Source: an uncultured Chloroflexia bacterium
GTDB taxonomy: Bacteria > Chloroflexota > Dormibacteria > Aeolococcales > Aeolococcaceae
Direction of reading: 5' to 3'
Assembly: GCA_963697585.1 (NCBI GenBank)
Contig: CAVOOO010000009.1
Location: 28,656-92,655 of the forward strand
DNA length: 64,000 nucleotides
The notes below the pieces were generated by a model. It had not been told where the DNA came from, made no database searches, and saw only the letters and a program-made list of their open reading frames with translations. Positions 28,656 through 58,839 of the stretch are shown piece after piece. The first letter of the stretch is position 1. Each line of letters begins with the position of its first letter. Position numbers and translations under genes: made by a program.

Positions 28656-28720
28656 GGCGCCGGCTCAGAGTGGGCTGAGCACCCCGGCGAGCCGGCCGGA
28701 GGTCCCGCGCTCGACTCCCG

Positions 28721-57286: not shown

Positions 57287-57727
57287 TCAGATGGACCGCC
57301 TGGCGCGCTGATCGGTGCTCATCGACACCACCTTGACGAGCACCGTTGCCGCGATGGCATAGACCACGGCGGCCAGGATGTCCGCCCAGACGATCACCGT
57401 GCCCGAGGTGGTGGAGGCCGTCTTGAAGATGCCCGCGAAGGGCGCGGCCAGGGCTCCACCGATGCTGTAGACGAAGGCTCCAAAGCCCACGTCGGCGGCT
57501 CCGGCCGCACGGAAGATGAAGTCGAATCCGAGGAAGATGAAGACGATGCCCGCGGCCAGGCCGATGATGCGAGCGGCCAGGGGTCTGCCCGACCACGCCT
57601 GCGTCGAGCTCCGCCGGGTTGCCACGCCGGTGGCCGGGTCCGACGTCGTCCGCGTCGTGCTGGTCACCCCCCGGTAGTCCTGACCCTCGCTGCTCACCAC
57701 CCGCTCCTGCGTCTGCATGTCGGCCAC
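57287..57727 (-). CDS. Hypothetical membrane protein (YggT-like C-terminal half)
   Basis: AAGGAGG RBS before GTG 57727; Thr-rich N-terminus; FRAAGA...GALAAPFAGIF; three hydrophobic segments. Confidence 0.65.
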   Translation of the reverse strand: MADMQTQERVVSSEGQDYRGVTSTTRTTSDPATGVATRRSSTQAWSGRPLAARIIGLAAGIVFIFLGFDFIFRAAGAADVGFGAFVYSIGGALAAPFAGIFKTASTTSGTVIVWADILAAVVYAIAATVLVKVVSMSTDQRARRSI

Positions 57728-57785: not shown

Positions 57786-58157
57786 TCACTCTGCCGTCGG
57801 GGTCGCAACAACCGCAGCAACGGCGCTCTGTGAGAGGGGGGATTGCGGCTGGTGGGCCCGCACCCGCGCCTCCCAGAATCCGAGCCTGATTCGGAAACGG
57901 TCGGCCTGGGCGACCACCACCGGGACGTTGGTCAGCTCGACCTCTCGCCGCGCCTGGCGCGACTGCGATGCCATGAGCTGGCGGATGCGCTCGAGGACGG
58001 CTTCCTCCATGGCCAGGATCTCGGTGTAGATGCCCCTCCAGAAGAGCGCCAGCTCGAGGGGGGCGGTCGCCGGGTCGGGCTCGTCGTCCATCCCCAGGGA
58101 GACATCCCCGCCCCGGGTCGCGGCCACGATATCGGGTCTCGCCTGGTGGGAGTCCAT
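57786..58157 (-). CDS. Stand-alone helical protein homologous to the N-terminal domain of the divergent regulator
   Basis: DPATAPLELALFWRGIYTEIL...LERIR...AQADRFRIRLGFWEAR aligns with the N-terminus of 58279..58839. Confidence 0.72.
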   Translation of the reverse strand: MDSHQARPDIVAATRGGDVSLGMDDEPDPATAPLELALFWRGIYTEILAMEEAVLERIRQLMASQSRQARREVELTNVPVVVAQADRFRIRLGFWEARVRAHQPQSPLSQSAVAAVVATPTAE

Positions 58158-58278
58158 GGGTCCGGGATACACCCACCGCCGCAAGAAGTTCAGCAACTGA
58201 CCGCACCCGGCGCTCGAGGGGCCGGGCGTCCGGGCCCCCTTGGGGAGCCGTCGCGGGGTGCGGTATAGTCGTTGCATA

Positions 58279-58839
58279 GTGGCAGATGAAGCAATCACGC
58301 CAGCGCGCGGGCCTCTATCGGGAGAGGACATCGCGACGGAGCACTGGGAGGACGCGCGCCACTGGATGAGCATCTACGACGATCTGATCCGCTTCAAGCT
58401 GGGCCTGCTCGAGCGGGTGAGGAGGGAGTTGCCGAAGCTGCACCCCGTGGCCCGAGCCGCGGCCGATGTTGACGTCGCCTTCATCGAAGCCCAGATGGCC
58501 GGATACCACGCCCGGCTCGACCTCTGGTACCAGCGGGTGTGGCAGCTCCACGGGCTGTGGCTGGACCCCGATGGACGGGTGGTGCGCCACCAGGGGAAGG
58601 AGGCCGCGCTCACCGTGCGGGAGTTCGAGCTCCTGCAGTTCCTGCTGGAGCATCCGCACCGCTTCTACACCACGTCGCAGATCGCCGGTTACGCGTGGTC
58701 AGACTCCGCACTGATGCCCGAGGAGGTCCGCAACTACGTCACGCGGGTCAGGAGGATCCTTGCTCGGCTGGAGATCCCCTGTGACCTGATCAACCGACCC
58801 GGTCACGGCTACTCGCTGACCTTCCGCGATGCCGGCTAA
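58279..58839 (+). CDS. Regulator with an unrecognised helical N-domain and an OmpR/PhoB-type winged helix; no receiver domain
   Basis: LTVREFELLQFLLEHP...AW...VRNYVTRVRRIL...NRPGHGY; TATAGT hexamer 9 nt before GTG 58279. Confidence 0.85.
   Translation: MADEAITPARGPLSGEDIATEHWEDARHWMSIYDDLIRFKLGLLERVRRELPKLHPVARAAADVDVAFIEAQMAGYHARLDLWYQRVWQLHGLWLDPDGRVVRHQGKEAALTVREFELLQFLLEHPHRFYTTSQIAGYAWSDSALMPEEVRNYVTRVRRILARLEIPCDLINRPGHGYSLTFRDAG

Follow-up and report, generated by a model that had tools for sequence, protein, structure and literature searches.

The window analyzed here, a stretch of 64,000 nucleotides with a GC content of 70% (positions 28,656 to 92,655 of contig CAVOOO010000009.1, assembly GCA_963697585.1), comes from an uncultured soil bacterium of the class Dormibacteria whose assembly comprises 3.2 Mb and is 88% complete. 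Examination of the window revealed two back-to-back, divergently oriented genes, designated A and B, whose products share a helical hairpin domain of ~85 residues. Gene A encodes the hairpin as a free-standing protein, and gene B encodes it in front of a winged-helix DNA-binding domain of the OmpR/PhoB type. The two genes remain linked in most of the loci compared and flank a conserved intergenic element, and their hairpins belong to a large family that is restricted to, and expanded in, the Dormibacteria. We propose, tentatively, that A modulates B through the pairing of their hairpins.

A hairpin domain shared by genes A and B

Both open reading frames lie where the preliminary description of this DNA had placed them, and they comprise the following features.

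57786-58157, minus strand: gene A, open reading frame with its translation, a free-standing hairpin protein of 123 aa
57840-58097, minus strand: hairpin domain of gene A, 86 aa, row 1 of the 85-column family alignment, modeled by AlphaFold2
58279-58839, plus strand: gene B, 186 aa, with an N-terminal hairpin and a C-terminal winged helix of the OmpR/PhoB type
58300-58557, plus strand: hairpin domain of gene B, paralogous to that of gene A by AlphaFold2, hhalign, and the family alignment
58558-58824, plus strand: winged-helix DNA-binding domain of gene B, OmpR/PhoB type, by Pfam, PDB profile matches, and Foldseek

The start of gene A is likely the ATG at 58157, because the commonest gene calls in relatives agree with it and a CATG is conserved in 63 aligned intergenic regions. 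For gene B, the GTG at 58279 is the likely start; it is favored because a conserved TATAGT, 9 nt upstream, would sit inside the longer open reading frames, and the alternative starts at 58240 and at an in-frame GTG near 58258 are considered less likely. The A protein begins with a conserved tail (RPDIVAATRGGD) and ends in a variable one. Each gene is present as a single copy in its own genome, and the orthologues of A and of B are 75-94% identical across genera. A search for relatives of A returned 1991 sequences at E<=1e-3, all of them unnamed or labeled 'hypothetical protein', and none with a Pfam domain.

The preliminary description had reported that A aligns almost without gaps to the N-terminal part of B, and had named a profile-profile comparison as a check. 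BLASTP aligned 72 residues of A and B at 29% identity, with a single gap (E=1e-4), pairing residues 100-171 of the long A open reading frame with residues 30-100 of the long B open reading frame. When family alignments of 23 sequences each were compared with hhalign, a significant match was obtained in the same register over 80 columns (E=5.7e-6, probability 85.5%), in agreement with the alignment as first described. Reciprocal profile searches of 80 loci, fetched around relatives of B, matched the A profile to the N terminus of B and the B profile to A over the same columns, with E values of ~1e-4 to 1e-8. Divergent paralogues from other Dormibacteria genomes matched both profiles with E values of 1e-9 to 1e-18 and so bridge the two families. 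An alignment of 27 family sequences was near-gapless over its 85 columns and yielded the consensus LL.GEDP.T..EDA.HW..VY.EL..FK..LL, a turn, and AR.E....D...EA...RFR.RL..W..R..L, in which a W and a Y never vary, with near-invariance of E, R, W, and R.

A coiled-coil or compositional artefact between unrelated N-terminal regions might be suspected here, as heptad-patterned helical sequences can inflate alignment scores and the pairwise E value is modest. Against this stand the single register recovered by BLASTP, hhalign, and the reciprocal hidden Markov model searches, the invariant and nearly invariant residues of the near-gapless alignment, and the intermediate sequences that match both profiles. 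Moreover, the family profile, when searched against the bacterium's own 3.2-Mb genome, found the A and B open reading frames as its sole matches, even at E<=10, which coiled-coil noise would not explain. We regard the artefact as effectively refuted, with hardly any probability left to it, and the homology of A with the N-terminal part of B, at the level of sequence comparison, as confirmed.

AlphaFold2 was used to model the A domain and B as monomers. The A domain was predicted to be an antiparallel two-helix hairpin with a pLDDT of 94.3 (helices 14-43 and 47-81, encoded at ~57855-58058), and B a hairpin followed by a winged helix (pLDDT 85.6, pTM 0.73). The predicted helices of the B hairpin comprise residues 23-53 and 56-90 (~58345-58548), and a linker of ~3 residues joins the second of these to the winged helix.

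Family membership was sought in Pfam (with A, B, 27 domain sequences, and 27 long relatives), NCBIfam, PADLOC, PHROGs, and the PDB sequences (with three profiles), and by Foldseek with both models. In Pfam, no family matched more than one of the 27 domain sequences (best E 0.006). NCBIfam gave no match to A, and for B returned response-regulator models that scored far below their cut-offs and covered the winged helix only, at profile positions from ~108 onward. PADLOC gave no match to A or B, and PHROGs matched only the winged helix of B. Among the PDB sequences, the domain profile found nothing below E 0.7, and Foldseek with the hairpin model found nothing in the PDB below E 0.37; its list consisted of generic hairpins, including designed proteins, EsxB, a kinase DHp domain, and the seryl-tRNA synthetase arm. 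TFIIS domain II, a weak PDB-profile match to the hairpin (E 0.016), was lost with a broader profile and was rejected. The analysis confirmed that the shared domain is a real helical domain that is undescribed in the databases searched, in keeping with its having been called unrecognized at the outset.

The C terminus of B matched the Pfam family Trans_reg_C (PF00486) with an E value of 4.3e-10 and 40 bits, compared to a cut-off of 26.2. The PDB profile matches of the winged helix were AdeR and PhoB (E 1e-8), and Foldseek aligned it with the DNA-binding domains of AdeR, SaeR, PhoB, and VicR at target TM scores of 0.75-0.81, so that the OmpR/PhoB effector domain proposed in the preliminary description was upheld. 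That description had also noted the lack of a receiver and of a nearby kinase, and both observations held. Pfam gave no Response_reg match in B at E<=1, and residues 23-90 were modeled as two long helices with no alpha/beta fold. On the contig, the closest HATPase_c match, ~13 kb away, falls below threshold, and the next is ~41 kb away; no kinase match above cut-off lies within ~40 kb of the pair on the contig, and no kinase recurs in the related gene-called loci. B is therefore a member of the OmpR family by its DNA-binding domain, yet it is not a response regulator, since it has neither a receiver domain nor a kinase partner nearby.

The gene pair, its control region, and its neighbors

The 80 loci mentioned above were picked by their similarity to B, and the co-occurrence figures are accordingly conditional on B. 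Gene A was found head-to-head with B in 62 loci, upstream and co-directional in 5, and downstream in 2, and was not found within 6 kb in the remaining 11. Linkage within 6 kb was thus observed in 69 of the 80 loci, which bears out the conservation of the pair, a further point that the preliminary description had singled out for checking. That the linkage is kept in head-to-head, co-directional upstream, and downstream arrangements indicates that it survives rearrangement and argues for selection on proximity. In palsa_834 (PMOL01000013.1 and PMOL01000005.1; loci L049, L058, and L059), three full head-to-head A-B pairs were found, two of which share a contig at a distance of 13 kb, and the pair duplicates there as a unit. 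In three divergent B loci having no adjacent A (L073:6571-7350, L077:6582-7364, and L080:6575-7351), a second open reading frame of ~260 aa with an OmpR-type winged helix lies directly 3' of B.

The intergenic region, measured between the conserved coding motifs, spans 130-300 nt and most often 160-189 nt. Three features were distinguished within it.

58177-58200, no strand assigned: conserved element GGCGTAAGAAGWTCAGCAACAG, 21-23 bp, ~20-45 nt upstream of the A start codon
58167-58174, minus strand: candidate -10 region for gene A, conserved GATACACC (GGTGTATC on the A strand), 8-9 nt from the A ATG
58264-58269, plus strand: candidate -10 region for gene B, conserved TATAGT, 9 nt upstream of the B GTG here and 7 nt in most loci

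In an anchored alignment of 61 intergenic regions, the GGCGTAAGAAGWTCAGCAACAG element had the highest information content, and it is seen as LLNFLRR and RKKFSN in the over-extended open reading frames of both families. The element is unique in the 3.2-Mb genome; its position weight matrix scored 36.3 bits, compared to 17.3 bits for the next match, which lies inside a coding gene, and a regulon search with this matrix found no second site in the same genome. Such uniqueness would fit a local, autoregulatory role, and it reveals no regulon. The runner-up in that search is an exact 14-nt copy of the element core (AAGAAGATCAGCAA), for which ~0.001 occurrences would be expected by chance, on contig C4 (C4:888800) within an inositol-1-phosphate-synthase-like coding region, where it encodes KKISK; this copy is probably coincidental.

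We consider the element a candidate shared promoter or operator, to which B may itself bind. By their position, GATACACC and TATAGT are candidate -10 regions, and their spacing to the respective starts suggests two leaderless transcripts, one of A and one of B. In the commonest short intergenic form, the two putative -10 boxes are ~36 bp apart, so that the element would span both -35 regions. The element abuts the TATAGT region in most loci. In the window's own clade (also L008, L011, and L083), a GC-rich insertion of ~55 bp (58201-58263) stands between the element and the TATAGT of B, and the putative promoters would be uncoupled here.

Neighboring genes of the window were traced through the 80 loci by tblastn; an all-against-all BLAST of stop-to-stop open reading frames was abandoned because of giant low-complexity clusters in this 70% GC DNA. 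The sole frequent companion of the pair is a small membrane protein.

57287-57718, minus strand: 143-aa protein with a polar N-terminal region and three hydrophobic segments, immediately 3' of gene A

This protein is encoded directly downstream of A in 31 of the 80 loci, and no family in Pfam, NCBIfam, PADLOC, or PHROGs matched it. Its gene may be transcribed together with A.

The preliminary description had further suggested, from its position, that the pair controls the mannoside cluster, a proposal taken here as dedicated regulation of the adjacent mannose and mannoside genes (PMI, HAD-type PMM, GT4-GH130, and GH130). These genes are physically adjacent to the pair in the window, and PMI and PMM stay on the A side in close relatives. 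Across the 80 loci, however, HAD-type PMM was found near the pair in 8, PMI in 9, and a LapA-domain protein in 11, all in close relatives; a six-hairpin protein was found in 1, and GT4-GH130 in 8, there as 30%-identity matches only and at a different position. The adjacency is thus gone in ~90% of the loci while A and B stay 75-94% identical. Elsewhere, in related gene-called loci, the neighbors were catalase/Fur, SnoaL, and GH65, or chalcone-synthase-like and DUF6458 proteins, or CMD and DoxX. Moreover, the conserved intergenic element occurs only once in the genome, with no further copy beside the sugar genes. The pair shows no conserved link to the neighboring mannose genes, and we consider its dedication to them improbable.

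The hairpin family and the possible role of A

An exhaustive profile search of 1.84 billion cluster representatives, with clusters defined at 50% identity, returned 1261 at E<=1e-3 and 556 at E<=1e-10. Among the best 150 representatives, 125 were free-standing proteins of <=150 aa and 18 were >=175 aa in length. Trans_reg_C was found in 13 of 27 longer relatives, in which no other domain recurred. Those relatives having a name are called 'hypothetical protein' or 'winged helix-turn-helix domain-containing protein' and come from metagenome-assembled genomes of Dormibacteria or Chloroflexi. Of 151 Dormibacteria genomes in a sample of the class, 123 carried the domain, in 1-12 copies, and a sample of the phylum, searched with the narrower A profile, gave matches in 16 of 22 class members and in 0 of 179 other Chloroflexota genomes. 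The hairpin family is thus lineage-restricted and expanded, the restriction to Dormibacteria being based on these genome samples and the source names rather than on a taxonomic census of the 1261 clusters. Within the same order, the domain was absent from 13 of 13 genomes (~2-3 Mb) of the family designated f52, and sister families carry 1-12 copies. A phylogeny of 40 hairpin representatives supported an A clade (SH-aLRT 99) and, more weakly, a B clade (SH-aLRT 93); its backbone is unresolved, and the origin of the winged-helix fusion is therefore not datable from it.

Several arrangements of the domain were encountered besides that of the A-B pair. Free hairpin genes occur as tandem pairs whose partners come from different clades, and two metagenomic proteins carry two hairpins each: P0243 (209 aa; hairpins at 18-100 and 122-200) and P0244 (221 aa; 12-96 and 140-217). 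In both, the A profile gives the second hairpin a better score than the B profile does. The order of domains is reversed in a protein of 364 aa (L097:4006-5100, minus strand; G164:C6), in which Trans_reg_C at 190-262 precedes a C-terminal hairpin at ~290-375. In locus L101, the gene directly upstream of a divergent, B-like winged-helix fusion encodes a free hairpin.

The Pfam assignments of the genes next to paralogues were sigma-70, CheR-PAS, CheB, REC-PAS-GAF-GGDEF-EAL, histidine kinases, and PspA. In two genomes (L092:1155-4362 and L101:3463-6999), hairpin genes adjoin genes for a CheB methylesterase and a CheR-PAS protein. In locus L099 (L099:3879-5838; G191:C23), a tandem free hairpin pair lies immediately 5' of a sigma-70 gene of the primary type that is full-length, with regions 1.1 to 4, and a HAMP-HisKA-HATPase kinase is encoded ~1.8 kb further upstream, with one open reading frame between. 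A 71-aa open reading frame in locus L088 (L088:3835-4050, plus strand; …PKDARRWVAVYERLLERG…RLAFWKRW) resembles a third, shortened hairpin that was left unscored by the profile searches; its end abuts and slightly overlaps, convergently, a tandem free pair.

As the best explanation of the pair we propose that A modulates B through hairpin-hairpin pairing, the two acting as a self-contained regulatory pair, and we rate the chance of this at a little under even. The hairpin would be a lineage-specific protein-protein association module that replaces the phospho-receiver domain in B, such that the packing of hairpin on hairpin, probably as a four-helix bundle, and not phosphorylation, would set the oligomeric state of B and hence its DNA binding. 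A, transcribed divergently from the shared and strongly conserved control region, would most likely pair with the hairpin of B, giving hetero-oligomers with fewer DNA-binding domains in which B is tuned or antagonized. The self-contained unit would consist of A, B, the intergenic element, and often the small membrane protein 3' of A.

The pattern of hydrophobic residues is consistent with such an association. In helix 1 of the domain, large hydrophobic residues occupy nine positions from column 24 to column 39, or ~4 per heptad, and helix 2 has ~3 per heptad. Two hydrophobic positions per heptad are enough for the hairpin itself, and a hairpin of ~45 Å is rarely found alone; the excess over the need of a lone hairpin leads us to expect a further packing surface. 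The heterotypic tandem pairs, the two-hairpin fusions, the reversed domain order, and the L101 arrangement provide hints, of the 'Rosetta-stone' type, that hairpins associate with one another. Heterodimerization with B or its titration by the free domain, as suggested in the preliminary description, is plausible.

Other observations weigh against modulation of B by A. The family consists mostly of free-standing proteins, many of them encoded with no winged-helix copy close by, so that antagonizing a DNA-binding paralogue may not be the primary role of the family. B can occur without an adjacent A, as it does in the 11 loci in which no A was found within 6 kb. Co-variation between the A and B hairpins, calculated with the average-product correction from 70 gene pairs that are too similar and too few to be informative, gave a top corrected mutual information of 0.51, no better than the 0.47 of a control that paired A with the winged helix of B. 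The net charges of the A and B hairpins are not complementary, and no OmpR-style direct repeat or palindrome was convincing by eye in the intergenic element. Competition for a ligand, one of the modes suggested in the preliminary description, did not find support, as the two-helix hairpin shows no pocket.

Some of these same observations would be accommodated if A and B were independent paralogues, with the hairpin dimerizing B only with itself and A having drifted to a separate job, for instance with the downstream membrane protein; the head-to-head layout would then be the retained scar of a duplication with shared promoter DNA. The three-transmembrane protein directly 3' of A in 31 of 80 loci, the absence of a co-variation signal, the B loci from which A is missing, and the fact that the hairpins are only ~29% identical to each other while each is very strongly conserved by itself are all in keeping with this possibility. 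However, the linkage survives rearrangement from the head-to-head to both co-directional and downstream arrangements, and the tandem heterotypic pairs and two-hairpin fusions point to hairpin contacts as a trait of the family. We regard independent roles as unlikely, with perhaps one chance in four. Less likely still would be a hairpin that binds a third partner, such as RNA polymerase, a sigma factor, or a signaling protein, by which B is recruited or controlled, and for which A competes, titration then occurring with no contact of A with B. Free paralogues do adjoin genes for a primary-type sigma factor, CheR and CheB, kinases, and a c-di-GMP enzyme; nearly all surface residues of both hairpins are conserved across genera, which suggests extensive contacts; and activators of the OmpR family are generally known to contact RNA polymerase. 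Yet no third gene recurs with the A-B pair, the neighbors of the paralogues are heterogeneous, and no line of evidence pinpoints a partner.

The proposed pairing of A with B could also be the core of something larger, a Dormibacteria-specific, partner-switching signaling system of hairpin pairs in which the hairpin serves as a phosphorylation-independent replacement of the receiver. In such a system, two types of hairpin would form four-helix-bundle heterodimers, and would be deployed as free pairs, fused double hairpins, and winged-helix fusions. In most loci the A-B pair would then act as a toggle, its leaderless promoters standing back to back and sharing one conserved 23-bp element in which their -35 regions overlap. 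We find this extension doubtful to about the same degree as independent roles for A and B.

Peat, permafrost, and desert soils harbor abundant Dormibacteria, a class documented mainly through metagenome-assembled genomes. To our knowledge, almost nothing is known of regulation in this class. B, conserved as it is across genera, counts as one of the best-conserved small regulators in the Dormibacteria, and its input domain is undescribed and simple in fold. What is new is this lineage-restricted input domain, a proposed association module, together with its free paralogue, the DNA-binding half being ordinary. The size of the family, with 1261 clusters and up to 12 copies per genome, merits the definition of a domain, and the hairpin proteins are small and suited to heterologous biochemistry. 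A misleading functional tie to the mannoside genes has been removed. If A does control B by hairpin exchange, an OmpR-type DNA-binding domain would here be switched compactly and without phosphorylation, and the pair would be an analogue of the SinI/SinR switch that evolved independently.

Relation to known systems

Comparison with known systems places the pair outside the response-regulator, SinIR, WXG100, DHp, and SARP families, as at least one tested defining feature of each is lacking. Like the OmpR/PhoB response regulators, B has a bona fide Trans_reg_C winged helix, and in that family dimerization of the N-terminal module normally licenses DNA binding. B differs from them in having no receiver, phospho-acceptor Asp, or partner kinase, and in carrying an N-terminal hairpin that Pfam, NCBIfam, and the PDB do not place. 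In the Streptomyces antibiotic regulatory proteins (SARPs), an N-terminal OmpR-type winged helix is followed by a BTAD domain, whereas the winged helix of B is C-terminal and no BTAD match was obtained.

Among two-helix proteins, the DHp domains of histidine kinases and Spo0B form antiparallel hairpins that dimerize into a four-helix bundle, and the DHp domain of a LOV kinase was a weak Foldseek match to the hairpin. A His in helix 1 of the hairpin family (alignment column 23) is common, being present in 15 of 27 sequences, but it is not invariant and is replaced by Phe in A; the family has no H-box, and no HisKA or Hpt match was obtained in Pfam. The WXG100 proteins of the EsxA/EsxB type are hairpins of ~100 aa, encoded as tandem heterotypic gene pairs and assembling into four-helix-bundle heterodimers, and the hairpin family likewise includes tandem heterotypic pairs. 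EsxB structures ranked near the top of the Foldseek list, although without significance (TM 0.55-0.6, E ~2). In contrast to WXG100 proteins, the family has no W-x-G in the turn columns 47-53, and it gave no WXG100 match in Pfam and no significant match in sequence or fold. The loci examined showed no type VII secretion genes, and the fusion of the hairpin to a cytoplasmic DNA-binding domain argues against a WXG100-like secretion.

The proposed logic of the pair has counterparts elsewhere. In Hha/YmoA with H-NS, and in Id with bHLH factors, a shortened paralogue that lacks the DNA-binding part enters the oligomer of the complete factor and alters the activity of that factor; the likeness to A and B is one of logic only, the folds and lineages being unrelated. 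No account of such a regulator in Dormibacterota emerged from a search of the literature, and we know of no precedent for this antagonist logic with this hairpin fold or with an OmpR-type domain.

The closest parallel is with SinI/SinR, and with SlrA/SlrR, of Bacillus subtilis. There, as with A and B, a small protein is homologous only to the helical oligomerization region of a regulator, and the two genes are adjacent. SinI, SinR, SlrA, and SlrR interact via shared 'helical hook' regions, and the antagonist acts by forming a heteromer through the shared helical region (PMC3917956), as is proposed by analogy for A with B. The systems differ in architecture, SinR having an N-terminal Xre-type helix-turn-helix and a short C-terminal hook of two helices, whereas in B the order is reversed, with the hairpin N-terminal and an OmpR-type winged helix C-terminal. 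The helices of A and B are longer, at ~30-35 residues, and show no sequence or fold match to SinI/SinR in Pfam, the PDB, or Foldseek. The hairpin family is also much larger, and fusion to a DNA-binding domain is the exception among its members. The A-B pair would thus resemble SinI/SinR in its logic, as an analogue and not as a member of the same family.

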